From an uncultured delta proteobacterium (GTDB lineage: Bacteria; Desulfobacterota; Syntrophobacteria; BM002): DNA of 64,000 nt. The stretch lies in the NCBI GenBank assembly GCA_963712115.1, contig CAVQGX010000039.1:88-64087 (forward strand), in the 5' to 3' direction. The translations under genes and the position numbers were made by a program. The notes beneath the pieces are model-generated. The model worked only from the letters and a program-made list of their open reading frames with translations, did not search any database and was not told the DNA's origin. Positions 47,977-64,000 of this stretch are shown here, in pieces; position 1 is the stretch's first letter; the number at the start of each line of letters is the position of its first letter.

Positions 47977-47990
47977 TGGACAAAGAATAA

Positions 47991-48110
47991 GGTTTCAGTG
48001 TTCAGTGTTCAGGTTTCAGCTTTAGATTTATTTTTTATTTTTCTCTTTCCTGACACCTGACACCCGAAACCTGAAACCTATAGCCCTCACACCTGAAACC
48101 CTGAAATCTG
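47991..48110. repeat. Low-complexity 'stutter' hairpin
   Basis: GGTTTCAGTGTTCAGTGTTCAGGTTTCAGC faces CCTGACACCTGACACCCGAAACCTGAAACC, and further CCTGAAACC words follow. Confidence 0.7.
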
Positions 48111-48224
48111 GTTCTTGTCGCTTGGGATTTCATAAAATCCATCACTCCAGGAGACTCCCGCATCAAGGAAACACTTTTAAAGCCTCCTCTGGGGCGGCAA
48201 AGTCCTAAGGACCCGAAGTCTTAA

Positions 48225-49100: not shown

Positions 49101-49172
49101 GAAGAGTACGAAGATGTTAATATCATTATTTAAATTTGCTTTATGCGATTCTTTGATAAAGGGAAAAAATCT

Positions 49173-49682
49173 TTAATTGCCCCCCTTTACAAAAGGGGGA
49201 CTTTTATGATCCAGTTCCCGTAAAAACCTCTGAAAAACACTCCTCTTCAACCGAGCAAGCCACAGGTAAAGCATGCTCCACAGTCTGACTCTCCAGCGGT
49301 AAGGGTCGATGGTGCGATGACCTCGCTCCAGCCAAACAACCTTGCCCAGGACCTGTTGCGCTTCCACCGGGCAATCGCAGGTCGTGGAAGCGTCCCCCCG
49401 CAGGATAAAGGTGAGTCCAGAACCGTTTCTTTCCTCTATATTCACTATGCGATGGGCAATCAAACCGCTCTGAAGGCGAAAGAGAATAATGTCTTTCTTT
49501 TTGAGCTTGGCTGGCGCTGCAGGCTCAACCGTGATCACGTCACCATGGCGAATGGTGGGATGCATGCTTGTTCCAGGGGCTCGGAAACGCACTCCTAAGC
49601 CGAGGCTCAACACCTCACCACTCAATTGACCAAAACTCGGCGATGAGATCCGAGTTTTCAATGCAAGGTCCGCCTTATTCAC
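49173..49682 (-). CDS. SipW/archaeal-type S26 signal-peptidase-like protein without a membrane anchor (cassette A)
   Basis: GTG start. GTSMHPTIRHGDV (Ser box), IAHRIV (His box) and RGDAS..CD (the GDN-type box). No N-terminal hydrophobic helix is evident. Confidence 0.7.
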   Translation of the reverse strand: MNKADLALKTRISSPSFGQLSGEVLSLGLGVRFRAPGTSMHPTIRHGDVITVEPAAPAKLKKKDIILFRLQSGLIAHRIVNIEERNGSGLTFILRGDASTTCDCPVEAQQVLGKVVWLERGHRTIDPYRWRVRLWSMLYLWLARLKRSVFQRFLRELDHKSPPFVKGGN

Positions 49683-49703
49683 GGTGTCAATAGCCTCGAA
49701 CCA

Positions 49704-49868
49704 TCAAGAGCCTGGGCCGGAGCAGGGTGAGGCCGGCAGACCGCATTCAGCGCCGTCAGGGCCGAGACTTCCAGAGCTTTTGCAAAAGGCCAGGACGGCA
49801 CACTTGGCGTCTAGACTCACCCGCTTAACTTCAGGCTTCTTATATTCTTTCTTCTTACTTTTCTCCAA
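49704..49868 (-). CDS. Candidate RiPP precursor peptide A (54 aa, TTG start), not in the ORF track
   Basis: My translation of the minus strand is (M/L)EKSKKKEYKKPEVKRVSLDAKCAVLAFCKSSGSLGPDGAECGLPASPCSGPGS-stop. An in-frame TAA lies 4 codons upstream. AAGGA sits 6 nt before the TTG. The ORF ends 21 bp before the S26-like gene. The leader EYKKPEVKRVSL parallels KYEKPLIIPFNSL of precursor B, and both cores have 4 Cys. Confidence 0.55.
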   Translation of the reverse strand: MEKSKKKEYKKPEVKRVSLDAKCAVLAFCKSSGSLGPDGAECGLPASPCSGPGS

Positions 49869-50151
49869 GGTTTTTCCTTACAAAAGTTAGAACCAAGTTT
49901 CGCTTGCGATTTGAAGGCTCCTACCTCTTACAATAAATGACAGCGCTACGCTGTCATTTATTGTAAGAGGTAGGGGTCAGGGGTCGGGAGTCAGGGATCA
50001 GTATAAAAATAGTTCCTAAGTATTAAATAATTTTATAATTTTTATACAAAGTTTTACCTCTGCAGGTTGTGCTGTTTGGGGCTAGGATTTGCTTGACACA
50101 CTTGAATGAAGTATTTACTATGGATTAAAGTAAACACTTGGAGGAAACAAA

Positions 50152-50415
50152 ATGGGAATAGTGACGGCCAAACAACTGAAACAAAGAACAGGTGAAATCA
50201 TTAAGCGACTAAAATCAGGTGAAAGCTTCACCCTGACACACCGAGGTAAACCCGTTGCAGTTATTAACCCTTCTTTATCAGAAGAGGAAAGAATCTCTCC
50301 GGGCTTGAGATCATTCGAGGAAGCGTGGGAGGATATTGAAAGACAGTTGGAGAAAACTAAACCTCCATTCAAGAGCTGGAAGGAGGCAACCAGGTGGGCT
50401 CGAAATCGGGTGTAG
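50152..50415 (+). CDS. Phd/YefM-type antitoxin
   Basis: MGIVTAKQLKQRTGEIIKRLKSGESFTLTHRGKPVAVINP is the typical Phd/YefM N-terminal fold. It overlaps the downstream PIN gene. Confidence 0.7.
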   Translation: MGIVTAKQLKQRTGEIIKRLKSGESFTLTHRGKPVAVINPSLSEEERISPGLRSFEEAWEDIERQLEKTKPPFKSWKEATRWARNRV

Positions 50416-50846
50416 TTTTAATTGATACTAATATTTTTGTCATAGACCTGCGATACAGCAGGGATATTCACTATAACGAGAATCTTGCATTTCTCAATGT
50501 CGTAGCTGAAAAGGGAGTAGGTTTTACGACTATTGTTAATCTGTTGGAGCTTTGCGGAATTCTTTCGTTCAATCTCAACGAAAAGCAATTGCTCGAACTG
50601 TGGTTCTATTTTCAGGATAAATACAAGGTGACTGTACTCCCCACCCCTGACCTCACGAGTAATTTTCCCACCATAGGAATTCAAGAGCTATTCGATGTTT
50701 TACAAAATCGGGCTTCACTTGGTGATGCCTTGATGATCACTGTTGCGGCAAAGTATTTACCTTTCATTACCACACTGGTCACTTGGGATGATGAACACTT
50801 CAAAGGTAAATTCCCTGGTAATGTCATGACTCCAGAGGAATACTAG
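50394..50846 (+). CDS. vapC: PIN-domain toxin (VapC-like)
   Basis: VVLIDTNIFV carries the first acidic residue, and the size and the overlap with the antitoxin gene fit the family. Confidence 0.65.
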   Translation: MGSKSGVVLIDTNIFVIDLRYSRDIHYNENLAFLNVVAEKGVGFTTIVNLLELCGILSFNLNEKQLLELWFYFQDKYKVTVLPTPDLTSNFPTIGIQELFDVLQNRASLGDALMITVAAKYLPFITTLVTWDDEHFKGKFPGNVMTPEEY

Positions 50847-51218
50847 ACCCCAGGTCCCACCGGTCTGTGATCTGCTTCGCCGGGATCTGGCGCACAGCTC
50901 TTGTTTGATCTACAGCTAATTGGTGTCCATCTGGAAACTACCCAGTGTTATTCTCAGCCCTTCGGCAAGACCTGCCGACGAACTCAGGTCGAGTCGCTCA
51001 GGGCAGGCTCCGAGAAGAGACGCTCTGTCATCCTGAAGCCTTCGGCAAGCTCAGAGCCTGCCCTGAGCCTGTCGAAGGGATAGACTCCGCGAAGGATCTT
51101 GAGATTCTTCGTCGTCCCGCATAAGCAGGACTCCTCAGAATGACAATCCAAAAGAGGTGTCTCCCGATGGAGACAAACTAGTTTGAGGAACGGCCTTCTT
51201 TATGCTAGGTTGTTTCGC

Positions 51219-51680
51219 ATGAAGGTTCTGTCAAGGAAAAAGTTGGATCAGAAAGAGAAAGATCTCTTGATTTCGCAGCTCAGGGAGTTGCTTTCGGGAA
51301 AAGAACCTGTTTTGTTTGCCTATCTTTATGGGTCTTTCTTAGGGGAGGGATTTTTCCAGGATATCGACGTAGCAGTGTACTTTGATTCGCCTGCCTTCAA
51401 GGATAGTAGCGACATGTTGAATTACTCCCTCGCCTTGAGTGCAGAGTGCGATATGGCCACCACTGGTGTGACCTTCGATCTCAGGCCTCTCAATTTGGCT
51501 CCCCTTCCATTCAGGTTCGACGTCGTGACCCAAGGGCGAGTCCTTTACACTAGGGATGAAGAGCTTCGGGTTGATTTTGAGGCGCGCACTCGAAGCCTCT
51601 ACTTCGACTTTTTACCCCATCTGAGGTTTTACTTTAGGAACATCGTCTTAGGAGAATCGGATGAACGACTTGGAGAATAG
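51219..51680 (+). CDS. mntA: MntA-type minimal nucleotidyltransferase antitoxin
   Basis: LFAYLYGSFLGEGFFQDIDVAVYF (GSx10-11DxD motif). The likely ATG is at 51219. Confidence 0.7.
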   Translation: MKVLSRKKLDQKEKDLLISQLRELLSGKEPVLFAYLYGSFLGEGFFQDIDVAVYFDSPAFKDSSDMLNYSLALSAECDMATTGVTFDLRPLNLAPLPFRFDVVTQGRVLYTRDEELRVDFEARTRSLYFDFLPHLRFYFRNIVLGESDERLGE

Positions 51681-52095
51681 TGTTCTGAACCGCCTATTCA
51701 CAGAGATGGATGAATCCCTCCGTAAGCTTATAAGTCTTTCGAAGCTTTCAGAAGATGAATTCCTAAGCCACTATGAAAAGATCGATACCTCCAAATATAA
51801 TTTCATTGTAGCTATTGAAGCCATAATAGACATCTGCAATCGAATCATTTTAAAGCGAAAACTTGGCTTTCCACAGGACTATTCCGATGTCATCAAGCTT
51901 ATGAGTCAGCAAGGGGTGTTGGAAGGGGATCTGGTCGGGCGGTTGTTGGAGATGGTCAAGTTCAGAAACATGCTGGTCCATCTTTACTGGAAAATAGAAA
52001 ATGACAGGCTATACAAGTATTTAAAGGAAAACCTCGGCGATTTTGAAGCATTCAAAGAGGCTATCAGGAAGTACCTCAAGAAAAGTTCATCATAA
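51661..52095 (+). CDS. hepT: HepT (DUF86) RNase toxin
   Basis: FRNMLVHLYW matches the Rx4HxY catalytic motif. The gene overlaps mntA by 20 nt. Confidence 0.75.
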   Translation: MNDLENSVLNRLFTEMDESLRKLISLSKLSEDEFLSHYEKIDTSKYNFIVAIEAIIDICNRIILKRKLGFPQDYSDVIKLMSQQGVLEGDLVGRLLEMVKFRNMLVHLYWKIENDRLYKYLKENLGDFEAFKEAIRKYLKKSSS

Positions 52096-52176
52096 CCTCC
52101 CACGCATATCTCACATCTCACATTCTTGTCTTCTACTAAGATCGCCCGCTGGAGCTGGAAGTGAGGTCAGAGGAAG

Positions 52177-53313
52177 TCAAGGGAGGCGGGTTTTAAAGAG
52201 GAGTTCTACAGTATTCGCAATCGCCATGGGGGGAACGGTCAGGCCGAGGGCATGTGCCCGGAGATGGGCTACGCGGCAGAGAAAATCCACGGGCTCTTCC
52301 GGATCTTTGTTCTCTAACTCGCCATTGGCCGGGCACATGCCACACATTGCCTTGATCGCACAGGCAAAACACTTGGTCTGCCTGGTGATCTTTTTCTGCC
52401 GGATCTCCGAGATAAAGTCTTCCCAGCCATCTCGGAAACTGCCTTGTCGCAGGTCGTAGGTGTCATTGGCAGACATCCCGCACAGACTGAGGTTTCCTGA
52501 AGGATCAATGGCAAAGGAGCCCACCCCACCACCGCACTGATAGAGATCATCGGAATGGTTTGGGTCTAAACGAGGTGCTGCATAGCGCTCACAGAACCGG
52601 TCCCACTCTGCCAACCGTTCAGAGTCCTGCACATCGAGCTCCACCACCTCTTCCGGTGTGAGCCTGAGGGCTAGAGGAACCTGAGAGCCGTCAAGCCGCG
52701 GGTTGATCATGGCATCGAACCTGAATTCCAAGCCCAGGTCCTCCTCCACAAACCGCTTCATCTCCCAAATCTCATGCCTGTTTAAGGTCATGGTAACGGT
52801 CTTGAGCTTCACGGGCATCCCACGCTCCATGAGCAACCTAATCCCTCGCAGGCAGCAGTCGAAAGAACCTGGTTTGCCGGTTATCTTTTCGTAGGTCTTC
52901 TTGGTGTGCCCGTACAGAATAATTTCAATGTAATGAGGCGGGTACTCGGCTAGAGAATCTGCAATCTTTTCATTGATCAGGATTGCATTGGTAAACAGGG
53001 TGATGAGTAACCCTTTCTGCTTTGCGTACTTGTAGATAACAATGAAGTCCGGTCTGGCGAAGATCTCCCCGCCCGTGTACAGGAGCCAGAAGCAGCCCAA
53101 CTCCACAATCTCATCCAAAATACGACAGTGCTCGTCGTAGGAAAGTTCGCGGTCAAGGGCCTGTTGATTCGCTATGGGCAGATTGTTGTAACAGTGGGCA
53201 CATGCCAATGGACAGCGACGGGTTACCTCAATGGTCCCCCGTAAGGGGATGCGCTTGCCTGAAACCCGGTGGGAGACGCCAAGGGCAAAGTCCTCATAGC
53301 TAACCGTTTCCAT
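52177..53313 (-). CDS. Radical SAM/SPASM peptide maturase (cassette A)
   Basis: The cluster motif is RRCPLACAHC (CxxxCxxC). The C-terminal SPASM cysteines are CGGGVGSFAIDPSGNLSLCG and CFACAIKAMCGMCPA. Confidence 0.85.
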   Translation of the reverse strand: METVSYEDFALGVSHRVSGKRIPLRGTIEVTRRCPLACAHCYNNLPIANQQALDRELSYDEHCRILDEIVELGCFWLLYTGGEIFARPDFIVIYKYAKQKGLLITLFTNAILINEKIADSLAEYPPHYIEIILYGHTKKTYEKITGKPGSFDCCLRGIRLLMERGMPVKLKTVTMTLNRHEIWEMKRFVEEDLGLEFRFDAMINPRLDGSQVPLALRLTPEEVVELDVQDSERLAEWDRFCERYAAPRLDPNHSDDLYQCGGGVGSFAIDPSGNLSLCGMSANDTYDLRQGSFRDGWEDFISEIRQKKITRQTKCFACAIKAMCGMCPANGELENKDPEEPVDFLCRVAHLRAHALGLTVPPMAIANTVELLFKTRLP

Positions 53314-53549
53314 GGTTTATCTCTAACCTGAGAGTGTTCAATAATTCAGTCTTGCATGCCTTGAGGCTTCGACCTAACTGGATCCCCGCCTGCGCGGGGA
53401 TGACTGGTGATGGCATGGCATCGTCATTCCCGCGAAAGCGGGAATCCAGATCATATGCAGACATTCATCTAGTCATTATCAGGGGAAACTATTCATAATA
53501 TAATTTTGTAACTAGTTGATTTGTTAACTTAAAGAAATATTTAACAGTT

Positions 53550-53849
53550 TCAAGTTGCTCCAGACGGCTTGATCAGTCCGGAACCTTCGAGAGATCGGAG
53601 GAAATCCAAAAGGTCTTTTTCCGCCTCCACGGCCCCAACATCGTACTCGTTTTTCACAGCTTCCATTAGCTGCCGAACGGTTTTCTGCCCGTCGATGAGT
53701 TGCCAGATCATGGCGCCCACTTCACTAAGGGTAAAAACTCCCTCCAGATCACCCACGTGACCCTTGATGGGCACAATAATTATCTCACCAGCAACATCTC
53801 TGGTAACGAGTTCCTTCTCTTTGGCAAAACACGTGTCTAAAGTGTTCAT
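53550..53849 (-). CDS. PqqD-family peptide chaperone (RRE), cassette A
   Basis: 99 aa. ...EIIIVPI...VFTLSEVGAMIWQLIDGQKTVRQLMEAVKNEYDV..AEKDLLDFLRSLEGSGLI is the canonical PqqD pattern. Confidence 0.85.
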   Translation of the reverse strand: MNTLDTCFAKEKELVTRDVAGEIIIVPIKGHVGDLEGVFTLSEVGAMIWQLIDGQKTVRQLMEAVKNEYDVGAVEAEKDLLDFLRSLEGSGLIKPSGAT

Positions 53850-53891
53850 GTGAATTCTCCAGGGAGCGATTTTAAATACATCTTATTTTTT

Positions 53892-54012
53892 CCCCTCCCC
53901 TGGCGGGAGGGGATAAAGGGGGGTCTGAACCTGGTACATAGGTTACCCATGTCCGTGGTTGCACGGGGAGGGGGTCACCCCCACCCATACCCTCCCCCGT
54001 CAAGGGGGAGGA
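53892..54012. repeat. GC-rich palindromic REP cluster (CCCCTCCCCTGGCGGGAGGGG / CCCTCCCCCGTCAAGGGGGAGG units)
   Basis: It contains hairpin units plus GGTCTGAACCTGGTACATAGGTTACCCATGTCCGTGGTTGCACGGGGAGGGGG. An inverted copy lies at 54611..54762. Confidence 0.8.
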
Positions 54013-54610
54013 GATTTTAGTATTTCCGGATGGGCACTAACTTTCCACAAGCTTTGTTTCCTCATAGACTCCTGCAATTCTTGGGCCGAGACGTTTCACT
54101 GTCATTTGCCTTCGGCGTCATTGGGTCATTACGCTGCGCTGTCATTGGTTGTAATAGGTAGGAGCCTTCAAGTCGCAAGCGAAGCTTGCTCCTACACGAC
54201 ATTGTAAAGCTAAGATTTCTTGCTGCCAGTTGCTAGCTGTCAGCTGCCTGCTGAATACAACCGGCAAAACGGACTTAACTGGCTTAAAAGTCTTAGGGCA
54301 GCGGGCAGGGGACCACTAGGCACTACACAGAGGGAGTAAGTGTTAAGTAGTTGAGAATAACTCAATTTTGATTGTCTTTCCTTACTGGCTCCTGGCTCCT
54401 GACTCCTGGCTCCTTGTCCCAAGGGTTGTAATTGCGGATATTATCGTTTATAGATCTCTAAATTTTTATTATTTGCAATCATGGGAGCACAAACTGAGAG
54501 TGCCAATGCAGCCTCTTTCGGCCCCGATGTCCGACCTTCTGTTTTTATCCTGTCTTTTCCACTTCGAGCGCAAGCACCATCCCGAGAGGCTTTCCGATAA
54601 CCTTATAGAT

Positions 54611-54762
54611 CCCTCCCCCTTGACGGGGGAGGGTTAGGGTGGGGGTGAAAAATAAATGTATTTCCAGTTATTTTATATCCCCCCTCCCCGTGCAACCACG
54701 GACATGGGTAACCTATGTACCAGGTTCAGACCCCCCTTTATCCCCTCCCGCTAGGGGAGGGG
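54611..54762. repeat. Inverted copy of the GC-rich REP cluster
   Basis: It contains the exact reverse complement of the 53925-53975 segment (CCCCCCTCCCCGTGCAACCACGGACATGGGTAACCTATGTACCAGGTTCAGACC), with a ~30-bp AT-rich insertion. Confidence 0.8.
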
Positions 54763-54911
54763 AAGGGGGTTGTCGGACAGCCTCTCCCGTTTGTTTTCGT
54801 AAGAAAGAGATGCAAAACCAACGGCACGAAGTTTGCTTGAAGTTTATAGGATTGGAGTATTGGAGTATTGGAGTATTGGAGCAGCAAATTGTTTGAAGGG
54901 GAGGTTATCCC

Positions 54912-55199
54912 GTGATGCAAACTGAAAATCCCATAGCCAATCCTCTGATCGTACTTCGGGAGGAGTTTGATGACTGGGCTATACTTTTTGATCCTGATAC
55001 CGGTGATGCCTTCGGCCTCAATCCCATAGGCGTGCACATCTGGAAGCGATTGGATGGTAATCATTCAGTCAAAGACATCTTGCAAGATCTGCAAGAGGGT
55101 TATGAAGATGTGCCGGACGAGGCAGAGGGTGATCTCCAAGAGTTCATTGAGGATTTGGTCCAGCGTGGACTAGCAGGATACGAGATTCAGAAGGATTGA
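54912..55199 (+). CDS. PqqD-family peptide chaperone (RRE), cassette B
   Basis: 95 aa. ...WAILFDPDTGDAFGLNPIGVHIWKRLDGNHSVKDILQDLQEGYEDVPDEAEGDLQEFIEDLVQRGL. GGGGAGG lies upstream of the GTG-ATG start. Confidence 0.85.
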   Translation: MMQTENPIANPLIVLREEFDDWAILFDPDTGDAFGLNPIGVHIWKRLDGNHSVKDILQDLQEGYEDVPDEAEGDLQEFIEDLVQRGLAGYEIQKD

Positions 55200-55206
55200 T
55201 CCGATC

Positions 55207-56310
55207 ATGCAATTAATGAAAACCCCCAGATCTGTGGATCTGGCTATAACCGCCCGATGCAATCTGCGGTGTACTTACTGCAGCCATTTCACCGGTGCGG
55301 GCGACGTGGGTCAGGATCTCCCCAAGGAAGAATGGCTCCAATTTTTCGAGGAATTGAATCGCTGTGCAGTCATGAATGTGACAATCGGGGGAGGAGAGCC
55401 TTTTTGTCGGAAAGATTTACGCGAGCTCATTGAGGGGATTGTCGGCAACCGGATGCGGTTCAATATTCTAAGCAATGGAACATTGATTAATGATGAGATG
55501 GCAGCTTTTCTGGCTTCGACCGGACGCTGTGACGGGGTACAGGTCTCCCTTGATGGCTCGGTTCCGATGACTCATGATGCTTGCAGGGGAGAGGGGAATT
55601 TCATAAGAGCCATGGAGGGCATCAAGTCCCTCCAGAAATATGGCGTTCCTGTTCCCGTCCGGGTGACAATTCACAAATATAACGTAAGGGATCTTGAAAA
55701 TGTTGCCAAACTTCTATTGGAGGACATTGGTCTTCCAAGCTTATCCACCAACGCTGCCTCATATATGGGTCTCTGCCGGCAAAATACTGAACAGATCCAA
55801 CTCACTGCTGAAGAACGCTCCCTGGCCATGGAAACCCTTCTAGAACTCGACAAAAAATACAATGGCCGCATCAGCGCTTCCGCCGGTCCTTTGGCTGAGG
55901 CAGGAAATTGGCTCGAGATGGAAAAGGCTTGTCAGGAAGAGGAAGAAGGTATCCCGGGACGGGGCTATCTTACCAGTTGCAATGGACCCATGAGTCAAAT
56001 CGCCGTGCGTGCTGATGGGGTCATGGTGCCATGCATTCAAATGAGCCATATAGAGTTGGGTCGGATCAACAGAGATGATCTTAAGGAGATCTGGCAGGAA
56101 AATCGTGAACTGAAAAGACTGAGGGAGAGGCATAAAATTGCATTGAGCGAATTCGAGTTTTGTCAGGGGTGTGATTACATCAACTACTGTACCGGTAACT
56201 GTCCTGCTCTGGCCTATACGATTCTAGATAAAGAGAATCATCCGAGCCCGGACGCCTGTCTGAAGCGATTCCTGGAGGCAGGGGGAAGGCTACCGGAGGG
56301 GATTTTTTAA
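55207..56310 (+). CDS. Radical SAM/SPASM peptide maturase 1 (cassette B)
   Basis: ARCNLRCTYC (CxxxCxxC). The SPASM region is CNGPMSQIAVRADGVMVPC and CQGCDYINYCTGNCPA. Confidence 0.85.
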   Translation: MQLMKTPRSVDLAITARCNLRCTYCSHFTGAGDVGQDLPKEEWLQFFEELNRCAVMNVTIGGGEPFCRKDLRELIEGIVGNRMRFNILSNGTLINDEMAAFLASTGRCDGVQVSLDGSVPMTHDACRGEGNFIRAMEGIKSLQKYGVPVPVRVTIHKYNVRDLENVAKLLLEDIGLPSLSTNAASYMGLCRQNTEQIQLTAEERSLAMETLLELDKKYNGRISASAGPLAEAGNWLEMEKACQEEEEGIPGRGYLTSCNGPMSQIAVRADGVMVPCIQMSHIELGRINRDDLKEIWQENRELKRLRERHKIALSEFEFCQGCDYINYCTGNCPALAYTILDKENHPSPDACLKRFLEAGGRLPEGIF

Positions 56311-56336
56311 CCGCAGAGAGCGCAGAGAGCGCAGAG

Positions 56337-57494
56337 ATGTCAAAGTCAAGTGTTGAAAAAATGAAAGAAGAACGAGAAAGGCGCAAATACCCATTGAATC
56401 AGATTTATTTTTATCTGACTGAGGGGTGTAACCTTCGGTGCCGGCATTGCTGGATTGCGCCTAAATATCAGAGCGAGGATAACTCCTATCCAGCGCTGAA
56501 CCTGGATCTTTTCAAGTCGATTATTGAACAGGCCAAACCCTTGGGTCTAACCGGGGTCAAATTGACAGGTGGTGAGCCGTTACTCCACCCTCAGATTCAC
56601 GAGATTTTGGGGCTTATTCAGAAGGAAGACCTCAGCCTTAATGTTGAAACCAATGGAATTCTGTGCACGCCCGAGCTAGCAAGCAAGATGGCTACTTGCA
56701 AAAAACCCTTTGTTTCAGTGAGCTTGGATGGTGCAGACTCAGGGACCCACGAGTGGGTGCGGGGCGTCACGGGCTGTTTTGAGGCTGCTTTGAAAGGCAT
56801 TCAAAATCTCGTCGAAGCAGGCTTGAGACCCCAAGTGATCATGTCCATCATGCGCCATAACAAAGAGCAGATGAAGCAGGTCGTAAGGCTTGCTGAGCGC
56901 TTGGGTGCCGGGTCGGTCAAGTTCAATATCGTGCAACCGACCGCCAGGGGAGAAAGAATGCATGACTCTGGCGAAGTCCTTAGCATTAGAGAGCTTGTGG
57001 AACTGGGAGGATGGGTGGAGAATACTCTTTCGGCCTCAACGTCCTTGCGTCTTTACCACAGTCATCCTATTGCTTTTCGCCCCCTTGGGAAGATGTTTGG
57101 CAACAATGGTGACGGGTGCGGGACCTGTGGAATTCTAGGTATCCTGGGCGTTCTGGCCAACGGCTCTTATGCTCTATGCGGCATAGGGGAAACGGTACCC
57201 GATCTTGTCTTCGGGCGTGCAGCCACGGATCTTCTAGAAGATATCTGGACTAAGACACCCATCCTCTTGGAGCTTCGCGAGGGACTTCCTCAGCGCTTTG
57301 AGGGGGCGTGCGGCAGTTGTCTCATGAAACACATTTGTTCGGGCAACTGTGTTGCCCAGAATTACTACCTCAGCAAGAATATATGGGCGCCATACTGGTA
57401 CTGTGAGGAAGCGCATAATCAAGGGCTTTTTCCTGAGGCTCGTATGCTTCCGGAAGGGACCAAAAGGAATCATAGGGATTATGATATGGGTTGA
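56337..57494 (+). CDS. Radical SAM/SPASM peptide maturase 2 (cassette B)
   Basis: EGCNLRCRHC. The SPASM region is CGTCGILGILGVLANGSYALCG and CGSCLMKHICSGNCVA. Confidence 0.85.
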   Translation: MSKSSVEKMKEERERRKYPLNQIYFYLTEGCNLRCRHCWIAPKYQSEDNSYPALNLDLFKSIIEQAKPLGLTGVKLTGGEPLLHPQIHEILGLIQKEDLSLNVETNGILCTPELASKMATCKKPFVSVSLDGADSGTHEWVRGVTGCFEAALKGIQNLVEAGLRPQVIMSIMRHNKEQMKQVVRLAERLGAGSVKFNIVQPTARGERMHDSGEVLSIRELVELGGWVENTLSASTSLRLYHSHPIAFRPLGKMFGNNGDGCGTCGILGILGVLANGSYALCGIGETVPDLVFGRAATDLLEDIWTKTPILLELREGLPQRFEGACGSCLMKHICSGNCVAQNYYLSKNIWAPYWYCEEAHNQGLFPEARMLPEGTKRNHRDYDMG

Positions 57495-57583
57495 GTCCCC
57501 AAGGCCTCAAGCGTGATAAGAGGATAGAGAGCCTTGGAGAATAAATCAAAGATTGAAGGTTTAAACCCTAGGAGGAAGCTATT

Positions 57584-57772
57584 ATGTCTCCTAAATATGA
57601 GAAACCATTAATTATCCCGTTCAACTCCCTTAAAGATGAAACTGGGCTCGGGCTTTGCAAGCCGCTTGGTTCAACAGATGCCGGGCAGTGTAGAACTGGT
57701 AGTACGGCAACACCGGGTGCATGCAAAAATGGTAGTACTGCAGGCGGTTGCAATAGCGGTAGTTCTCCATAG
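57584..57772 (+). CDS. Candidate RiPP precursor peptide B (62 aa)
   Basis: MSPKYEKPLIIPFNSLKDETGLGLCKPLGSTDAGQCRTGSTATPGACKNGSTAGGCNSGSSP. There are four C-x2-3-G-S-[TS] repeats, with Cys at 25, 36, 47 and 56. A strong AGGAGG lies 8 nt upstream of the ATG. The gene sits between the maturases and the kinase-like gene. Confidence 0.7.
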   Translation: MSPKYEKPLIIPFNSLKDETGLGLCKPLGSTDAGQCRTGSTATPGACKNGSTAGGCNSGSSP

Positions 57773-57927
57773 GCAGTTGCGCTAATGGAAGATTCGTGTC
57801 TGGTTCTTGGGCGGCATAGGGCTCGTGGTAAAGTTCCCTGATACTTTGGGAATGAAAGAGTTTTTTTGATACATGGAAGCACTTTGAATTAACTATCATC
57901 TGGTTTTAGAGTATTAAAAGTTGTCAA

Positions 57928-58854
57928 ATGACTACAATCGAAACACCACTAAAAGGTAACATAGGATATTCTTTGCGTTTGGCCAATGGCCAGTCGTGGC
58001 ACATCATAGCCACAGATGGGGTAAAGCCGTGGGTAGCGAAGCTAGCCTCAGTAATGGAACTTAAACCGTGGGATGGGAATGGTTATCAAAAGTTGATCTT
58101 CATGCGGAGAGGGACAGACAAGAAAAGTTGGCGGAAGTCTGGATCCTCTCTGCCCCCAGAGATTCAAAAGAATCTTCATGAGAGCAATGGCGAGGTTCGT
58201 GGATCTCCTGTCATCCAAACCTGGTCCCACTATGGCACCCAAGACGTCTTCTGCGAGATTGGAGATGAGCAGGGTTACGAGCGGGATATTGCCGGGATGT
58301 TGGTGGCAATTTATCCTATTTTTGAAAGGGCGCAAAACTCGGGTGGACTCGCCTTGCATGCTGCTATGCTTGAACGGGATGGGATCGGAGTTTTATTGGC
58401 AGCTCCAGGAAATACGGGAAAATCGACCTGTTGCCTTAGACTTGGCAGCCCGTGGAGGTCCCTTTGCGATGACGAGACCCTGGTCGTACGGGATCATCAG
58501 CAACAATATCTGGCACACCCTTTCCCAACTTGGAGCGATTACCTCTTGAAACGCTACAAACGCACATGGAACACTGAATATCATATTCCGTTAACCGCGA
58601 TATTCTTTATAGAACAGGCTATGCATGACGAGGTGCTTCCCATTGGGCAGGGGGAAGCAGCGGTATCCATCCACCATTCAGCGATGCAGATGTGTCGTCG
58701 CAGATTGTACCATCTGGGTCGCAAAGAGTCTAAGTCTTTAAAACTGAAGCTGTTTGATAACGCCTGCGAAATCGCCAAAGCTATCCCGGCTTTTAAGCTA
58801 AAAGTGAGCTTAAAAGGACGGTTTTGGGAGAAGATTGAAGCGGTTTTGCCATAG
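57928..58854 (+). CDS. HPr-kinase-like P-loop protein (cassette B; possibly ScmC-like)
   Basis: 308 aa. ALHAAMLERDGIGVLLAAPGNTGKSTCC resembles the HprK/P P-loop region. It is a paralogue of 48225..49100. Confidence 0.65.
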   Translation: MTTIETPLKGNIGYSLRLANGQSWHIIATDGVKPWVAKLASVMELKPWDGNGYQKLIFMRRGTDKKSWRKSGSSLPPEIQKNLHESNGEVRGSPVIQTWSHYGTQDVFCEIGDEQGYERDIAGMLVAIYPIFERAQNSGGLALHAAMLERDGIGVLLAAPGNTGKSTCCLRLGSPWRSLCDDETLVVRDHQQQYLAHPFPTWSDYLLKRYKRTWNTEYHIPLTAIFFIEQAMHDEVLPIGQGEAAVSIHHSAMQMCRRRLYHLGRKESKSLKLKLFDNACEIAKAIPAFKLKVSLKGRFWEKIEAVLP

Positions 58855-58871
58855 ATAACCAAAGAGAAGAA

Positions 58872-59513
58872 GTGGAAGAGACGCAACCAATAAAACCAAT
58901 AGAGTTAGGTTCAATAAATTACATTGGCCCCAGCATGAATCCAATTCTTAAAGCTGGAGATGTTCTCCGAATTGTGTCTTATGAGGGGCAAGAAATCCGA
59001 CGGGGAGATGTGATTGTTTTTGTTGCTCCCGGAGGTGATTTTAAGGTCATTCACCGCGTAGTAGCCCTAGATTCGCAAGGAATTAGAACCCGAGGTGATA
59101 ACTCCACTGATGTCGACCCGTGGATCCTTAAACCAGATCAAGTCCTTGGTCGTGTAGTTTGCGCCCGAAGGCGGAATAAAAGGCTGAGAGTATTTGGAGG
59201 GCCAAAGGGGAGCTTGGTTGCTACAGTCATCAGAACCATTAACTGGATCGATTCGAGCGTGTCGAAGTTGCTGCGGCCACCATGTAAACGACTGGCCAGG
59301 ATAGGTTTATTCAAGCAGCTGTTGCCCGAGAGTGTGGAACTACAAGTTGTTTCGTTTAGCCGACCGTCAGGAACAGAGCTGCAACTGCTCATTGGGGGAC
59401 GCGTGATAGGCAGATGGCCAGCGGGAAAAAGTGGATGGAACATCCGGCGCCCTTTTCGGCTTTTTGTGGATGAAAATTCTCTGCCCGAAAATCCGTCTAA
59501 ATTGGGGCAATGA
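58872..59513 (+). CDS. SipW/archaeal-type S26 signal-peptidase-like protein without a membrane anchor (cassette B)
   Basis: GTG start. GPSMNPILKAGDV, VIHRVV and TRGDNSTDVD. No N-terminal TM helix is evident. Confidence 0.7.
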   Translation: MEETQPIKPIELGSINYIGPSMNPILKAGDVLRIVSYEGQEIRRGDVIVFVAPGGDFKVIHRVVALDSQGIRTRGDNSTDVDPWILKPDQVLGRVVCARRRNKRLRVFGGPKGSLVATVIRTINWIDSSVSKLLRPPCKRLARIGLFKQLLPESVELQVVSFSRPSGTELQLLIGGRVIGRWPAGKSGWNIRRPFRLFVDENSLPENPSKLGQ

Positions 59514-59580
59514 AGGTATAAGTCAAGTGGTGTGAGTGGTTGACATTGGTAATCTAAAATTTTCCGAGGAACTTAGATAG

Positions 59581-60120
59581 ATGGCTAGGACAAATGACAT
59601 AGAAAAAAGACTGTTAAAGGATATGCAGTTGGCGAAAAGAAAGTTTGAATGTTATGAAAAAATGTATATTGGTTTGAGTGGAGACGGAAAGAAATATCTT
59701 CAAGCACAATCTAGACGATATAAACGGAAAGTATCTGAGATACAAAAAATTATTCTCCCTGCTTTAAATGATATTTGTCCTACATGTATTAACTGTTGTA
59801 AATTATATACTCCAGAATTATCTATATATATTGCAGGTAGTATAGGTTGTTTTCAGTTTATAGATTATGTATTGGTAAGATGTAATAATATATTACCAAA
59901 TCCTTATTTTGAAAATATTAAGCATAATCTATGTCCATTTTGGGCTGAGGGTTGCATTCTACCAAGCGATTCTAGAAGCTATCTATGCACCAAATATTTT
60001 TGCGATAAACTCAAAAAAGAACTTGATATGAGAGTTATCTCAGAACACTTGGAAGTTTTGAAATCTATCATAAAGGATTTTTCAATTAAAAAGTGTTTGG
60101 ACTTGAATCCAGAAGCTTAA
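59581..60120 (+). CDS. YkgJ-family CxxCxxCC cysteine-cluster protein
   Basis: 179 aa. CPTCINCC is the CxxCxxCC signature of the putative Zn/Fe-chelating domain, and further Cys residues follow (CPFWAEGC, CTKYFC). The gene is markedly AT-rich compared with its neighbours. Confidence 0.55.
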   Translation: MARTNDIEKRLLKDMQLAKRKFECYEKMYIGLSGDGKKYLQAQSRRYKRKVSEIQKIILPALNDICPTCINCCKLYTPELSIYIAGSIGCFQFIDYVLVRCNNILPNPYFENIKHNLCPFWAEGCILPSDSRSYLCTKYFCDKLKKELDMRVISEHLEVLKSIIKDFSIKKCLDLNPEA

Positions 60121-60153
60121 TGTAAAAATGTAGATCAAGTATGTTATTTACCA

Positions 60154-61458
60154 ATGATTAGAGACAATAAGTATACTATGGATCGATTCACTTGTATAAA
60201 TCCGTCGACAGCATTGGCGCCAGAAAAGGCCATCCAAGAAATATATCCTGGTCTGAGGTTATGTGGAACCTCAGATAAATATTTTCTTGATCTTTCAGAT
60301 GAACTGTTGACCTATGTAAGGTCAGTTTTGAAAGATGAATCCCCCCAAGCTCCGGGGGCATCGTTAGATGAATGGTCCGGGCTGCTAAATTTCCTCCGAT
60401 CTAACTGGATAATCCCTTTTGTTTATCGAAAAATTGGCTCTTTGCCGCCGGAATGTCGCCCACCGGAACCGATCACCGATGAAATGAGACAGGATTTTCT
60501 CGTCAGTGTTGTACGTTCTCTTCACATGGAGAGGCAGCTCCAGGAAATTATCGAAGCGTTCCTGCAACAAGGTGTTCGAGTGCTGGTTTTGCGGGGACCT
60601 GCCCTGGCATTTTCACTGTATACAGATCCGGCGATGAGGTCCAGCTGTGATCTTGACCTGTTGGTGATTCCGGAGCAAGTGGTTCAGGCGCGAGATATTC
60701 TGGAAAGCTTGGGCTACAGATGTTTGGCCAGAAGGTTCGAAACCGCCAGGGACTTTTTCCGCGAGGAGTGCTTTGTCCATCAAGGAAATCAGGGTAACAA
60801 GTTTCCGGTTGATCTCCACTGGGTCCACTGGGAACTACACCCCTTTTTTAAGGGCAGTGAAGAGGTTGACATAGAGGATCTTTTTCAGAGGGGTTGGAAG
60901 GTTGAGACCCCAACTCTCGCTTTCGAAACCCTGCACCCAGTAGACTATCTCATTCATTCGGCAATTCACTTAGTAATGATCCATAAAAATGAAATGCGGT
61001 TAAGTTGGATTTATGACACGGCATTGCTTGCCCAACAACTTCAAGTGGACAATGACTGGGCAACATTGCAGGAGAGGAGCGTCGCCTGGAGGGCTCGGCT
61101 ACCATTAGAACATTGCCTGAAAATGGCTCAAGTTTGGGCTGGGCTCGAGCTACCGGACGGATTCGATGACTTTTCCACCTGGCCACGACCCACAGAGGAC
61201 GAGTCTGCTGTTTGGGCAGATACCATGCGGCACCATTGGGTGACTATATTGTTGAAACGGTCGCTGGCGAATCCCTCCCTTCTTCTAAAGAGGGTTCCGT
61301 CTTTGCTCCGTTTGCTCTTCCCACATCCTGAAATTGTGCGATTTTGCTACCCGACCTCCAGTAATTGGCTGCTGCCGTTCTCTTATGTGAGAAGGTGGTT
61401 TAGATGGATTGATGATCTGGTTATTAATAGGATTGGTGCGTTGAAACAAAAATCTTGA
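60154..61458 (+). CDS. Nucleotidyltransferase family protein (uncharacterised NTP_transf_5-like type)
   Basis: 434 aa. VLVLRGPALAFSLYTDPAMRSSCDLDLLV resembles the KG..Y......R...DiDlLV signature of this family. Confidence 0.55.
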   Translation: MIRDNKYTMDRFTCINPSTALAPEKAIQEIYPGLRLCGTSDKYFLDLSDELLTYVRSVLKDESPQAPGASLDEWSGLLNFLRSNWIIPFVYRKIGSLPPECRPPEPITDEMRQDFLVSVVRSLHMERQLQEIIEAFLQQGVRVLVLRGPALAFSLYTDPAMRSSCDLDLLVIPEQVVQARDILESLGYRCLARRFETARDFFREECFVHQGNQGNKFPVDLHWVHWELHPFFKGSEEVDIEDLFQRGWKVETPTLAFETLHPVDYLIHSAIHLVMIHKNEMRLSWIYDTALLAQQLQVDNDWATLQERSVAWRARLPLEHCLKMAQVWAGLELPDGFDDFSTWPRPTEDESAVWADTMRHHWVTILLKRSLANPSLLLKRVPSLLRLLFPHPEIVRFCYPTSSNWLLPFSYVRRWFRWIDDLVINRIGALKQKS

Positions 61459-61485
61459 AAAGTAATAATTTGTAAGAGACTCAGT

Positions 61486-61626
61486 CTCACCCCCACCCCG
61501 CCCGCCTCGCCTGAGCGAGAGCGATGGCGGGCAGGCCTAACCCTCCCCCGTCGAGGGGGAGGGAACGTTTTGTGCACGCTATGATTCCCCCTCCCCTGGC
61601 GGGAGGGGGTTAGGGGGAGGGGGAAG
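61486..61626. repeat. GC-rich palindromic REP cluster
   Basis: Contains CCCCGCCCGCCTCGCCTGAGCGAGAGCGATGGCGGGCAGGCC, CCCTCCCCCGTCGAGGGGGAGGG and CCCCCTCCCCTGGCGGGAGGGGG. Confidence 0.8.
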
Positions 61627-61656
61627 CGTCATGATAGAAAATGTCAGGGTTAAATC

Positions 61657-63513
61657 GTGAAGAACAGCTGGTGGACATATTTAAAATCAGGGCTTTCGCG
61701 AAAGTTCCCGGAGGACCGTATTGGTGGTCAGGACAGCCACGGGTCTTTAAAGACCAGCCTTGAGAACCTCCACCCTTTTATCGGCCTCCATTGGCGCAAG
61801 GGCGCAGTGGGTGTCCTCGTCATCATGGTCAGCTCTTTTCTCGGCATCCCTCAACCACTCATCATGCGTTATCTGGTTGACGATGTGATCCTAAGTCGTG
61901 AGCTGGGGTTCCTGGCAGTAGCCATTCTCCTGCTGGCCGGAATCTCCCTGGCGGAGAAACTAACAGGCCTCTTGCAGCAATTCTATTTTGCTCGCTTTGA
62001 GCAGGAGGTTACCCTCGACATCCAACAAGATCTTTTCAGCCATGTCCTGCGCTTTCCCAAGGCTTTCTTCGATGAAAAACAGACAGGCTACTTGATTTCC
62101 CGTCTCTCCTCCGACGTGGAGGGGCTGCGCTGGTTTTTTTCAAGCACAATTGCTTACATAATCAGTAATCTCCTGCGATTTGCCGGTGGAGTGGTTTTGC
62201 TTTTCTACCTGGAATGGAGACTTGCCCTTGGTGTCCTTTTAATCGTCCCCGGCCTGGTGCTTTGTATAAAGTACTTCTCAAGGAAAGTTCACGTCCTCAG
62301 CCACCAGGATATGGAACAACAGGCCAATGTCACGAGTAATTTGCAAGAGTCACTTTCTTCGGTATCCTTGATCAAGGCCTTCTCCACCGAAGCGCGCACG
62401 GTCAAACGTTTCACCTCCCAACTGAAAGAGGCATTTCAGATTTCACTTGAGCAAACCACGGTAAGTTCCGTTGCCAATCTAGTAATCAATTCTATGCCAG
62501 GAATGGCAAAGGTCACTGTACTGGCCTTGGGGGCTTACTGGGTGATTCAGGGCCATTGGAGTCTGGGTTCTTTACTGGCTTTTATAGCCTACCTGGCCTA
62601 TGTATTTGGCCCGGCTCAGTTTCTGGCCAGTGCTAACCTGCAATTACAAAATGCACGAGCGGCACTGGAACGAGTTTCGGCTCTCTACGACATCATCCCA
62701 GAAGAGAATGTTGGCGCTGGTGAAAAAACAGAAAGGCTAAGAGGGGAGATTGATTTCAACAACGTCTCATTCTCCTACGACGAGCGTGAGCCGGTGCTCA
62801 ACAATATCTCCTTCCGCATTCAACCCGGAGAACGGGTAGCCATTGTGGGGCCCAGCGGCGAGGGTAAAACAACCCTGTTGAGCCTTATCCTCCGTTTCTA
62901 CAAACCCAGTGCAGGAGAAATCTGCTTTGATGGGAGGCCGGCAGAGCACTATGAAGTGGGTTCACTGCGGAGACGGATCGGCTACGTGTCCCAGAGCGCA
63001 CTCCTTTTGGCCGGCACCATTAGGGAAAACCTCCGATACGGTAATCCTGAGGCTAGGGAGGAGGAGATTGTTCGAGCGGCTACTGTGGCGGATATCCATG
63101 ATTTTATCGTGAGCCTGGCGGGAGGATATGAGACCGAAATTGGTGAAAAGGGAGTTAAACTCTCGGAAGGACAGAAACAGCGGCTGTCCCTTGCCCGGGC
63201 AATAGTCAAAGATCCGGACATTCTGGTACTGGATGAGCCCACTTCTGCCCTGGATAGCCAGACGGAAAAGACTATTTTCCAGTCTCTCCCATCTATTATC
63301 AAGAACAAGACCCTCTTCGTGGTGGCTCACCGCCTTTCTACTATCATGAATTCCGATCGCATCTTCCTTTTAGATCAGAACCGCCTCATTGCCATTGGCA
63401 CCCATGAGTCACTTTTGCAGAGCAATGATTACTATCGTTCCATAGTTTCCCACCAGCAGGTCCAGCCGGAACAGGATTCTACAGATACTAGGCGGTATTA
63501 TAGGGTTGTCTAG
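61657..63513 (+). CDS. ABC exporter, fused permease/ATPase (MsbA-like type I exporter)
   Basis: Six-TM N-terminal half. Walker A GPSGEGKTT, signature LSEGQKQRL and Walker B ILVLDEPTSALD. No N-terminal C39 peptidase domain is present. Confidence 0.9.
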   Translation: MKNSWWTYLKSGLSRKFPEDRIGGQDSHGSLKTSLENLHPFIGLHWRKGAVGVLVIMVSSFLGIPQPLIMRYLVDDVILSRELGFLAVAILLLAGISLAEKLTGLLQQFYFARFEQEVTLDIQQDLFSHVLRFPKAFFDEKQTGYLISRLSSDVEGLRWFFSSTIAYIISNLLRFAGGVVLLFYLEWRLALGVLLIVPGLVLCIKYFSRKVHVLSHQDMEQQANVTSNLQESLSSVSLIKAFSTEARTVKRFTSQLKEAFQISLEQTTVSSVANLVINSMPGMAKVTVLALGAYWVIQGHWSLGSLLAFIAYLAYVFGPAQFLASANLQLQNARAALERVSALYDIIPEENVGAGEKTERLRGEIDFNNVSFSYDEREPVLNNISFRIQPGERVAIVGPSGEGKTTLLSLILRFYKPSAGEICFDGRPAEHYEVGSLRRRIGYVSQSALLLAGTIRENLRYGNPEAREEEIVRAATVADIHDFIVSLAGGYETEIGEKGVKLSEGQKQRLSLARAIVKDPDILVLDEPTSALDSQTEKTIFQSLPSIIKNKTLFVVAHRLSTIMNSDRIFLLDQNRLIAIGTHESLLQSNDYYRSIVSHQQVQPEQDSTDTRRYYRVV

Positions 63514-63540
63514 AAAGTCTTCTCTGACAAGAGATAAAAT

Positions 63541-63740
63541 CCCCCCAAAGAGGCCTGTCCGACAATCCCTTTCCCCTCCCCTGGCGGGAGGGGATAAAGG
63601 GGAGGGGGACACACCCCCACCCTAACCCTCCCCCGTCAAGGGGGAAGGGATTATAAGGTTATCGGACAGCCTCTAAAGGGGGATTTAGGCCTGCCCGCCA
63701 TCGGCTTCGCCTTCAGGCGAGGCGGGCGGGGGGATTTTGA
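63541..63740. repeat. GC-rich palindromic REP cluster (same units; part is inverted relative to 61486..61626)
   Basis: Contains CCCCTCCCCTGGCGGGAGGGG and CCCTCCCCCGTCAAGGGGGAAGGG. GGCCTGCCCGCCATCGGCTTCGCCTTCAGGCGAGGCGGGCGGGG is the inverse of the 61493-61545 unit. Confidence 0.8.
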
Positions 63741-63770
63741 TCCGGGCTAGGGTAAGGCGGTGCCCGGTGA

Positions 63771-64000
63771 TCACTGAAGATCCTTCCAGGCATCCTCAAC
63801 GATTTCATGACTGACGATAGTCTTGTCCGCCAGATAGGTGGCAAGGAGGCTGCGATCGCAGAGGTTGTTAATTTCCCGAGGGATGCCCTTGGTAAATCTG
63901 AAAATAGCCTCCAGAGCCTCGGCAGTGAAGGGCAATCTCTTGCAACCTGCCACAGTCAAGCGATGCTTGATGTAGTAAAGAGAATCTTTATAAGGGAGGG
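63771..64000 (-). CDS. ExeA/GspA-like ATPase, C-terminal part only (5' end beyond the window)
   Basis: The frame is open to the window edge: ..LPYKDSLYYIKHRLTVAGCKRLPFTAEALEAIFRFTKGIPREINNLCDRSLL.... This parallels KQYVEHRLKIAGGRREIFTQKAIHSIYSFSKGYPRKINVICDYALL in the IS-disrupted copy. Confidence 0.7.
   Translation of the reverse strand, partial: LPYKDSLYYIKHRLTVAGCKRLPFTAEALEAIFRFTKGIPREINNLCDRSLLATYLADKTIVSHEIVEDAWKDLQ

Follow-up and report, generated by a model that had tools for sequence, protein, structure and literature searches.

The SynChlorMet (SCM) cassette is an already catalogued gene family for a ribosomally produced peptide with post-translational modifications (RiPP), with curated protein models for a recognition protein (ScmD), two radical SAM/SPASM maturases (ScmE and ScmF), a kinase-like protein (ScmC), and also the precursor peptide (ScmA). 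Here we analyze a further member of this family, which we call cassette B, in a 64-kb stretch of DNA from an uncultured delta proteobacterium (contig CAVQGX010000039.1); this whole stretch is referred to as the window. Nine co-directional genes at 54912-63513 on the plus strand are close to certain to be a complete SCM operon for a RiPP. An earlier note on this DNA, made from the sequence alone, had stated that neither the precursor nor the product of the cassette had been identified. For the precursor this did not hold, since a curated ScmA model (TIGR04252) exists. For the product it did, in that a search of the open-access literature and bioRxiv for SynChlorMet, the TIGR accessions, and the Scm genes and product, with most subscription journals lying outside the search, returned no study.

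Apart from the family itself, the closest described RiPP systems are of two kinds. One is the sactipeptide/ranthipeptide group, where, for example, each CX3D repeat of freyrasin receives one small thioether ring from PapB. The other comprises the kinase-type lasso peptide clusters. Lasso leaders contain a conserved YxxPxL motif at positions -17 to -12 (PMC10368454), and HPr-kinase-like proteins of RiPP clusters phosphorylate the leader-bearing precursors (PMC8498205, PMC10368454). For the lasso kinase BsfK, phosphorylation is strongly boosted by the RiPP recognition element (RRE) BsfB1, and mutagenesis showed that BsfK residues H148, K169, S170, D186, and D187 are important (PMC10368454). In the case of the lasso peptide pseudomycoidin, a kinase and a nucleotidyltransferase decorate the peptide as a pair, with the nucleotidyltransferase adding hexoses to the phosphate (PMC8498205).

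The SynChlorMet operon and its precursor

The earlier note had described nine closely spaced, co-directional genes, and their coordinates and strand were confirmed; the gaps between the nine open reading frames (ORFs) are, in order, 7, 26, 89, 155, 17, 67, 33, and 198 nucleotides. The first gene (54912-55199) encodes a stand-alone PqqD-family RRE of 95 amino acids that scores 134.7 bits against the NCBIfam ScmD model TIGR04248 (curated cut-off 100) and 69 bits against PF05402. It is followed by two radical SAM/SPASM maturases, ScmE (55207-56310, 367 amino acids) and ScmF (56337-57494, 385 amino acids), which score 645 bits against TIGR04250 and 620 bits against TIGR04251, respectively, where the curated cut-off is 400 for each. 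Downstream of the gene for the 62-residue precursor ScmA (57584-57772) is the gene for ScmC (57928-58854), a kinase-like P-loop protein of 308 amino acids that scores 312 bits against TIGR04249 (curated cut-off 125), and precomputed matches to PF27840, a family named ScmC in a newer Pfam release, are found on proteins identical or nearly identical to it. Thus, the first part of the operon is the SCM cassette, as the earlier note had proposed, with ScmD, ScmE, ScmF, and ScmC all passing their curated hidden Markov model (HMM) cut-offs. The note had set this HMM search beforehand as the check on its assignment, and had named a failure to score together with a gene set found nowhere else as an outcome that would count against it; the proteins do score, and, as described below, the gene set is conserved elsewhere.

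Four further genes complete the operon on the same strand. They encode a soluble peptidase of the S26 family (58872-59513, 213 amino acids; SEC11/SipW-type, Ser/His), which is a putative leader peptidase; a Cys-rich accessory protein with a CxxCxxCC motif (59581-60120, 179 amino acids); a nucleotidyltransferase-fold protein of the NTP_transf_5 family (60154-61458, 434 amino acids; PF14907); and an ABC exporter with fused permease and ATPase (61657-63513, 618 amino acids). An Rfam search of 53300-64000 returned no family, and within the spacer between the genes for ScmA and ScmC we found no unusual RNA structure (z = -0.2) and, in a scan, no terminator-like site.

The earlier note had also placed the precursor between the second maturase and the ScmC gene, and the ORF found there has an AGGAGG ribosome-binding site 8 nucleotides 5′ of its ATG. 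Its only family match is to TIGR04252, "SynChlorMet cassette protein ScmA", at 28.1 bits (E = 1.8e-6), which is under the cut-off of 35. The peptide carries a lasso-type Y-x-x-P-x-[LI] leader motif, Y5-E-K-P8-L-I10, and then has four C-x(2,3)-G-S-[TS] repeats, at Cys25, Cys36, Cys47, and Cys56. We predict that residues 1-23 (57584-57652) are the leader and residues 24-62 (57653-57769) are the core.

To place this peptide in context, we use 79 candidate ScmA genes collected from 51 related loci; 51 of the 79 genes begin at most 900 nucleotides upstream of a ScmC gene. Selection of the candidates required at least three C..G units per peptide, which biases the statistic for Gly at +3 but no other position. 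The window peptide fits the leader and repeat pattern of this collection. The family leader can be written K-[LIM]-K-Y-E-K-P-x-L-[IV]-x-L, and its Pro lies 14-17 residues ahead of the first Cys in 66 of 80 peptides; in one related locus (L035), the leader KLIYKKPALYDL is almost the same as the KLIYKKPQLTY of the lasso leader BsfA. Gly, Ser, Thr, Ala, and Asn abound in the cores, which contain 3-17 Cys and are hypervariable in sequence and in number of repeats. Within the repeats, the spacing from one Cys to the next has a mode of 10 (9-11 in 267 of 373), Gly is at +3 for 84% of all Cys, the +6 position is Ala or Pro in about half, and 61 of 80 peptides end with a tail of 6-8 residues past the last Cys. 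Because of this spacing, the Gly at +3, and the length of the tail, the modified unit looks like a seven-residue C-x-x-G-x-x-x. Cys is the sole invariant side chain of each repeat; no aromatic, Lys, or acidic residue is conserved, and Ser or Thr is present at +4/+5 in 65% of repeats and absent from 35%.

The curated model TIGR04252 is narrow, since it recognizes just 17 of 58 candidate precursors at E ≤ 0.01. Several candidates are present in 13 of the 51 loci, and there are also expanded loci (L003, L015, L021, L028, L058, and L080) that vary in what they hold, be it 3-6 different ScmA genes, peptides of up to 17 Cys, several copies of ScmC, or a mini-cassette of ScmD and ScmF with its own precursor. 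These multiple ScmA and ScmC copies show that the SCM family diversifies through duplication of precursor and kinase.

To see how widely the gene set is conserved, we scanned one genome from each of 185,579 species with a ScmC profile, which gave 143 relatives, and examined 80 loci. Partners were counted within 9 kb of ScmC, and loci with enough flanking DNA were taken as informative. The order ScmD-ScmE-ScmF-ScmA-ScmC-S26 recurs in both bacterial and archaeal anaerobes, and the taxa that contain the cassette are strict anaerobes spread over many phyla of both domains, namely Desulfobacterota, Syntrophia, Chlorobiaceae, Brocadiaceae, Aminicenantes, Omnitrophota, Methanocella, and Methanothrix. 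ScmD is near ScmC in 54 of 62 informative loci, ScmE in 47 of 60, and ScmF in 53 of 65. The S26-like peptidase is a neighbor in 61 of 72, and its gene directly follows ScmC in 49 of 77 loci. The NTP_transf_5 protein is found in 37 of 57 and the ABC exporter in 31 of 53, with the exporter present in the window and in most close relatives, while the Cys-rich protein is found in only 2 of 43. The earlier note had treated all four of these genes as an extension of the cassette, and this stands for the peptidase, the nucleotidyltransferase, and the exporter, which recur elsewhere, but not for the Cys-rich protein as a core component. The peptidase should be regarded as near-core, the nucleotidyltransferase and exporter as frequent accessories, and the Cys-rich protein as an occasional accessory.

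Proposed recognition, maturation, and tailoring

ScmD is 30% identical over 73 amino acids to the lasso-peptide RRE BsfB1, and it scores 28-36 bits against lasso PqqD models, under their cut-offs. Both maturases have the radical SAM motif CX3CX2C (C18/C22/C25 in ScmE and C31/C35/C38 in ScmF) and a full set of SPASM cysteines (C258...C276 and C319-X2-C-X5-C-X3-C332 in ScmE; C264...C281 and C325-C338 in ScmF). Neither contains a fused N-terminal recognition domain, and they should therefore depend on ScmD. Scores of ScmE and ScmF against the PapB, AlbA, SkfB, and StsB models are 60-92 bits, where the cut-offs are 300-850, which places them outside those families.

The earlier note had called ScmC HprK-like, and its predicted fold bears this out. 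A single-sequence or profile search against solved structures gave marginal HprK matches (E 0.06-0.9). An AlphaFold model built from an alignment of 117 sequences has a predicted local distance difference test score (pLDDT) of 85 and a predicted template modeling score (pTM) of 0.84; an earlier version from 15 sequences gave a pLDDT of 50 and was unusable. In a Foldseek search with the model, the 50 best matches in the PDB are all phosphoenolpyruvate carboxykinase (PEPCK) or HprK/P, with E from 8e-8 to 8e-4. Conserved residues are H144, the P-loop A159-x4-G164-K165-S166, and D181-D182, of which H144, G164, K165, S166, and the Asp-Asp pair are invariant or nearly so over the 117 members, and H144, K165, S166, D181, and D182 align with H148, K169, S170, D186, and D187 of BsfK (hhalign probability 59%, E = 9e-5, over the catalytic core). 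From the model, we regard the PEPCK/HPr-kinase fold of ScmC, in which the P-loop and the Asp-Asp pair are intact, as confirmed.

The peptidase scores 54.3 bits against TIGR02228 (cut-off 51.85) and 27.3 bits against PF10502 (cut-off 22.9), with a weak match of 26.9 bits to the nickel superoxide dismutase protease model TIGR02754; its closest solved relative is SEC11C. In 56 homologues, the Ser, His, and Asp catalytic boxes GpSMnP (GPSMNP in the window, with Ser21), HRV (with His61), and TRGDN are kept, and the C terminus is extended by about 100 amino acids that are also conserved. No hydrophobic segment or membrane anchor was found in its sequence. A precedent for an S26 enzyme working in the cytoplasm is SodX, the maturation protease of nickel superoxide dismutase, which trims an N-terminal propeptide there. 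We know of no RiPP for which a soluble homologue of the endoplasmic reticulum/archaeal-type signal peptidase has been described as the leader peptidase. Type I signal peptidases prefer small residues at -1 and -3. In the ScmA family, 68 of 80 peptides have G, A, S, or T two residues ahead of the first Cys, and the residue four ahead of it is mostly A or G. Because these small residues fit the -1/-3 rule, the window ScmA is predicted to be cleaved at G21-L-G23|L24, one residue before the first Cys, to leave a 39-residue core.

For the remaining three proteins, the annotations are as follows. The Cys-rich protein has no Pfam match even at E ≤ 5 and none in NCBIfam; its family consists of 75 homologues, all unnamed, and its gene is also present in the Scm-like cassette of locus L081. 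The CxxCxxCC motif that the earlier note had picked out is invariant in 21 homologues (C66, C69, C72, and C73), as are C118, C125, C136, C141, and C172. The NTP_transf_5 protein scores 157 bits against PF14907, residue 148 marks a G-x(n)-DLD motif, and a structure search found no solved relative for it. In the exporter, residues 52-319 match PF00664 and residues 381-530 match PF00005, with a Walker A motif, GPSGEGKT, at 398. Because the transmembrane domain starts at residue 52, there is no room for a C39 domain, which agrees with the earlier note that the exporter lacks one.

These features suggest a pathway in which ScmD would bind the YEKPLI leader and present ScmA to ScmE and ScmF, and the two maturases would act once per repeat. 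Most probably, the Cys sulfur would be joined to a carbon within the next six residues to give a string of small thioether rings. A link to C-alpha (sactionine-type) is favored over one to a side chain because, Gly +3 aside, no fixed offset can be counted on to provide a side chain; Gly occurs at a frequency of at least 7% at every variable position from -4 to +6 around Cys. Provided that the Cys is crosslinked at a fixed position, the acceptor would more probably be a backbone C-alpha than a side chain. With ATP, ScmC would put a phosphate on a Ser or Thr hydroxyl while the peptide still has its leader, as its lasso HPr-kinase homologues do when aided by an RRE, and the NTP_transf_5 protein may decorate the phosphate or hydroxyl further, possibly with a nucleotidyl or glycosyl group. 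The S26-type peptidase would then cut off the leader in the cytoplasm at the predicted site, and the ABC transporter would export the product. We lean modestly toward this pathway as a whole, with its chemistry inferred, and the step in which we have least confidence is the type of crosslink.

A broader proposal, which we hold only tentatively, is that the SCM product represents a new RiPP class. In such a class, a lasso-type leader and RRE, two SPASM enzymes, a PEPCK/HprK-fold kinase, and often a nucleotidyltransferase would work on C-x-x-G repeats of about 10 residues to make a string of small sulfur-to-backbone rings with phosphate or phospho-nucleotidyl/glycosyl groups, and the leader would be removed by a soluble signal-peptidase homologue.

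Several points weigh against the pathway. The match of the window ScmA to its model is below the curated cut-off (28.1 versus 35 bits). About 40% of informative loci lack the exporter and the nucleotidyltransferase. Which bond ScmE and ScmF form, and why it would take two enzymes, are guesses. Phosphorylation cannot take place once per repeat, because only 65% of repeats have a Ser or Thr at +4/+5. The likeness of ScmC to proven peptide kinases is weak and extends over about 70 residues (hhalign 59%; PDB profile E = 0.06). Finally, the lasso-associated nucleotidyltransferases are presumably members of PF14907, but the literature search did not confirm this.

One alternative to the thioether pathway keeps the logic of the cassette and changes the chemistry, so that ScmE and ScmF would carry out epimerization, C-C or C-O crosslinking, or anSME-like conversion of Cys to formylglycine, or else one would make thioethers and the other something else. 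The next-best models for the two enzymes are functionally diverse, with ScmE matching WgkB (a Lys-Trp crosslinking enzyme, 148 bits), GeoRSP, and AhbD, and ScmF matching AhbD, NirJ2, and MftC (111-142 bits), all far under their cut-offs. ScmE and ScmF score 86-97 bits against each other, less than either reaches against AhbD or WgkB, so they are not close paralogues, and this suggests two different reactions. On the other hand, with only Cys invariant in each repeat, there are no conserved residues for the known C-C or C-O crosslinks, a Cys-repeat core together with SPASM enzymes is the pattern of sactipeptides and ranthipeptides, and the closest solved relative of ScmE is SkfB, which forms thioethers. 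We consider a non-thioether chemistry a possible but less favored outcome. A different route to thioethers would be lanthipeptide-like, where ScmC would phosphorylate the Ser or Thr at +4/+5, elimination would yield dehydro-amino acids, and Cys would add to them to form (methyl)lanthionine, with the radical SAM enzymes having some other role. The kinase is indeed a core gene of the cassette, and a Cys and a Ser/Thr are 4-5 residues apart in 65% of repeats; however, the other 35% have no such residue there, the invariant partner of Cys is Gly +3 and not a hydroxyl residue, no lyase or cyclase domain is found by Pfam or NCBIfam in any of the nine proteins, and both SPASM enzymes would be left without a role. 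This makes lanthionine formation highly improbable.

Other alternatives concern what ScmC does and where the product acts. Instead of modifying the peptide, ScmC could be an ATP-binding partner or chaperone of the adjacent S26 peptidase, such that leader removal would be ATP-dependent or gated and the product would have no phosphate. That 49 of 77 loci have the S26 gene right beside the ScmC gene is in line with this, as is the lack of conservation of Ser/Thr positions in the ScmA core, and the same pair of HprK-like and S26-like genes is also present in an unrelated cassette of the window (cassette A; 48225-49682, minus strand). We nevertheless think a chaperone role unlikely, since the catalytic His, the P-loop Lys-Ser, and the Asp-Asp that are nearly invariant among the 117 ScmC members are the phosphotransfer residues of BsfK, and homologous HPr-kinase-like RiPP proteins are proven to phosphorylate precursors (PMC8498205, PMC10368454). 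It has also to be considered whether the product is not secreted and is instead an intracellular redox or metal-binding peptide or a cofactor of strict anaerobes, in the manner of mycofactocin or PQQ, which related PqqD plus SPASM systems make. Members of the family are found only in anaerobes (Desulfobacterota, Syntrophia, Chlorobi, anammox bacteria, Methanocella, and Methanothrix), the exporter is missing from 22 of 53 informative loci, and the distant matches of ScmF include MftC and AhbD. Set against these observations are the dedicated ABC exporter here and in most close relatives, and the hypervariable cores (3-17 Cys) and multiple precursors (13 of 51 loci), which are typical of secreted RiPPs and not of cofactors. 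An intracellular product or cofactor is in our view quite unlikely. We retain the thioether pathway with phosphorylation and export as the preferred reading.

The SCM family has curated models but a product that is undescribed in the open-access literature we found, and it occurs in hard-to-grow syntrophs, green sulfur bacteria, anammox bacteria, and methanogenic archaea. The window locus is compact and intact, has a single precursor, and holds all the accessory genes in one operon, which makes it suited to heterologous expression. For experiments, it offers a clean way into a radical SAM RiPP family that is still an orphan, with predictions for the leader, the repeat, the kinase residues, and the cut site. 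If the chemistry is new, it would add a type of radical SAM crosslink and a new kind of RiPP leader peptidase, and it would show that lasso and radical SAM pathways share a module for recognition and tailoring.

Cassette A, repeats, and the rest of the window

Upstream of the SCM operon, on the minus strand at 45854-53849, is a second RiPP-like cassette (cassette A) that has the same architecture and belongs to no curated family. In the direction of the minus strand, it encodes a PqqD protein (53550-53849), a single radical SAM/SPASM enzyme (52177-53313), a candidate precursor of 54 amino acids, MEKSKKKEYKKPEVKRVSLDAKCAVLAFCKSSGSLGPDGAECGLPASPCSGPGS (49704-49868), with a KEYKKPEV leader that contains a Y-x-x-P motif, an S26/S24-like peptidase (49173-49682), an HprK-like P-loop protein (48225-49100), a HEAT-repeat protein (46474-47976), and a CAAX/Rce1-like protease (45854-46531), all on the minus strand. 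With the HprK-like and S26-like genes side by side in cassette A, this pair recurs outside the SCM family. PqqD or HprK-like genes similar to those of cassette A are also found near the Scm cassettes of seven related loci (L001, L002, L011, L013, L035, L053, and L081). Between the radical SAM gene and the precursor gene of cassette A are two toxin-antitoxin pairs on the plus strand (50152-52095), which may have split the cassette A operon. One is a MntA/HepT pair (51183-51680 and 51661-52095), and the other consists of a small antitoxin-like ORF at 50152-50415, Phd/YefM-like by eye, and, after it, a weak match to a PIN-domain protein at 50394-50846.

Repeated DNA elements are present around both cassettes. 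A GC-rich palindromic repeat with the core CCCCTCCCCTGGCGGGAGGGGATAAAGGGGAGGGGGA...CCCTCCCCCGTCAAGGGGGAGG has four copies in the window, all beside or inside cassette B, at 53890-54040 (+), 54585-54764 (-), 61515-61624 (+), and 63555-63710 (+), and the copies at 54.6 and 63.6 kb flank cassette B as inverted repeats. The same repeat is found in or near the Scm cassettes of genomes that are only distantly related (L001 at about 7291, L033 at about 6477 and about 8013, and L013 at about 1928). Because both orientations occur and there is no Rfam match, it looks like an element of the repetitive extragenic palindromic or miniature inverted-repeat transposable element (REP/MITE) type. Between the divergent cassettes A and B, an 85-nucleotide inverted repeat (53890-53974 and 54680-54764, 99% complementary) encloses 705 nucleotides, with a geometry that resembles an invertible promoter segment. 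There is also a 59-nucleotide element just upstream of the cassette A precursor gene (49888-49946) that recurs, 88% complementary, at 54136-54194, where it points to cassette B and lies about 720 nucleotides upstream of ScmD. This element may be a promoter or operator shared by cassettes A and B.

Farther away, 13000-45100 is a locus for polysaccharide biosynthesis and export, with GT4 glycosyltransferases, a Wzy-like ligase, a Wza-like exporter with FG-GAP repeats, an AsnB-type asparagine synthase, and two Wzz/BY-kinase genes. Two 0.7-kb stretches of this region, 38485-39180 and 44389-45082, are 98-100% identical at a spacing of 5.9 kb, a sign of recent partial duplication. We considered and rejected a functional link between Scm and polysaccharide genes, as such neighbors are found in only a handful of 82 loci. 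At the start of the window, there is a PKD-repeat protein (109-1695) with four DNA repeats of about 291 nucleotides (269-1429), a DDE transposase (4650-5813), a phage-type integrase (10655-11890), and an 89-nucleotide repeat in three copies (1979, 3651, and 6759). This end of the window looks like a region rich in mobile elements.

Comparison with known systems

Compared with the catalogued SCM cassette, the window locus has all five components in the usual order D-E-F-A-C, and four of them score above the curated cut-offs, while ScmA, at 28 bits, falls under its cut-off of 35. None of the SCM models matches the S26 peptidase, NTP_transf_5 protein, ABC exporter, or Cys-rich protein of the window, the first three of which are common neighbors of the cassette. 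The peptidase has in common with SEC11/SipW (the Ser/His type) and SodX the S26 boxes GxSMxP, HRV, and GDN. Unlike these enzymes, it has no membrane anchor and has an additional, conserved C-terminal domain of about 100 amino acids, it is coupled genetically to ScmC, and its presumed substrate is a RiPP leader instead of a signal peptide.

The locus has the gene content of a sactipeptide or ranthipeptide system, with a SPASM maturase, a recognition element, and a Cys core. With subtilosin/AlbA, SkfB, freyrasin/PapB, and SCIFF it has in common a PqqD-type element, radical SAM/SPASM maturases, and repeated Cys units. In contrast to these systems, the SCM cassette has two non-paralogous SPASM enzymes, a recognition element that stands alone, a core gene with a kinase fold, and an S26-type leader peptidase, and its repeat is C-x-x-G with no conserved side chain as acceptor.

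We also considered two other RiPP classes. Membership of the lanthipeptides was rejected, as searches with Pfam and NCBIfam found no LanB, LanC, LanM, or lyase domains in the nine proteins. Membership of the lasso peptides was likewise rejected, since there is neither an Asn-synthase-like C cyclase nor a transglutaminase-type B2 protease among the nine; the sole Asn synthase encoded in the window, at 23390-25336, is a complete GATase-AsnB protein that belongs to the polysaccharide locus, 30 kb away. The kinase-type lasso clusters, including those of paeninodin (PadeK), pseudomycoidin (PsmK/PsmN), and Bradymonas (BsfA/B1/K/N/D), nonetheless have five elements in common with the SCM cassette, namely a leader whose YxxPxL is about as far from the core, a PqqD-like RRE, an HPr-kinase-like protein in which the catalytic residues are the same, a nucleotidyltransferase, and an ABC exporter. 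Where the lasso clusters have a cyclase and a B2 protease, the SCM cassette has two SPASM enzymes and an S26 peptidase in their place, and its core is rich in Cys and lacks the features of a macrolactam.

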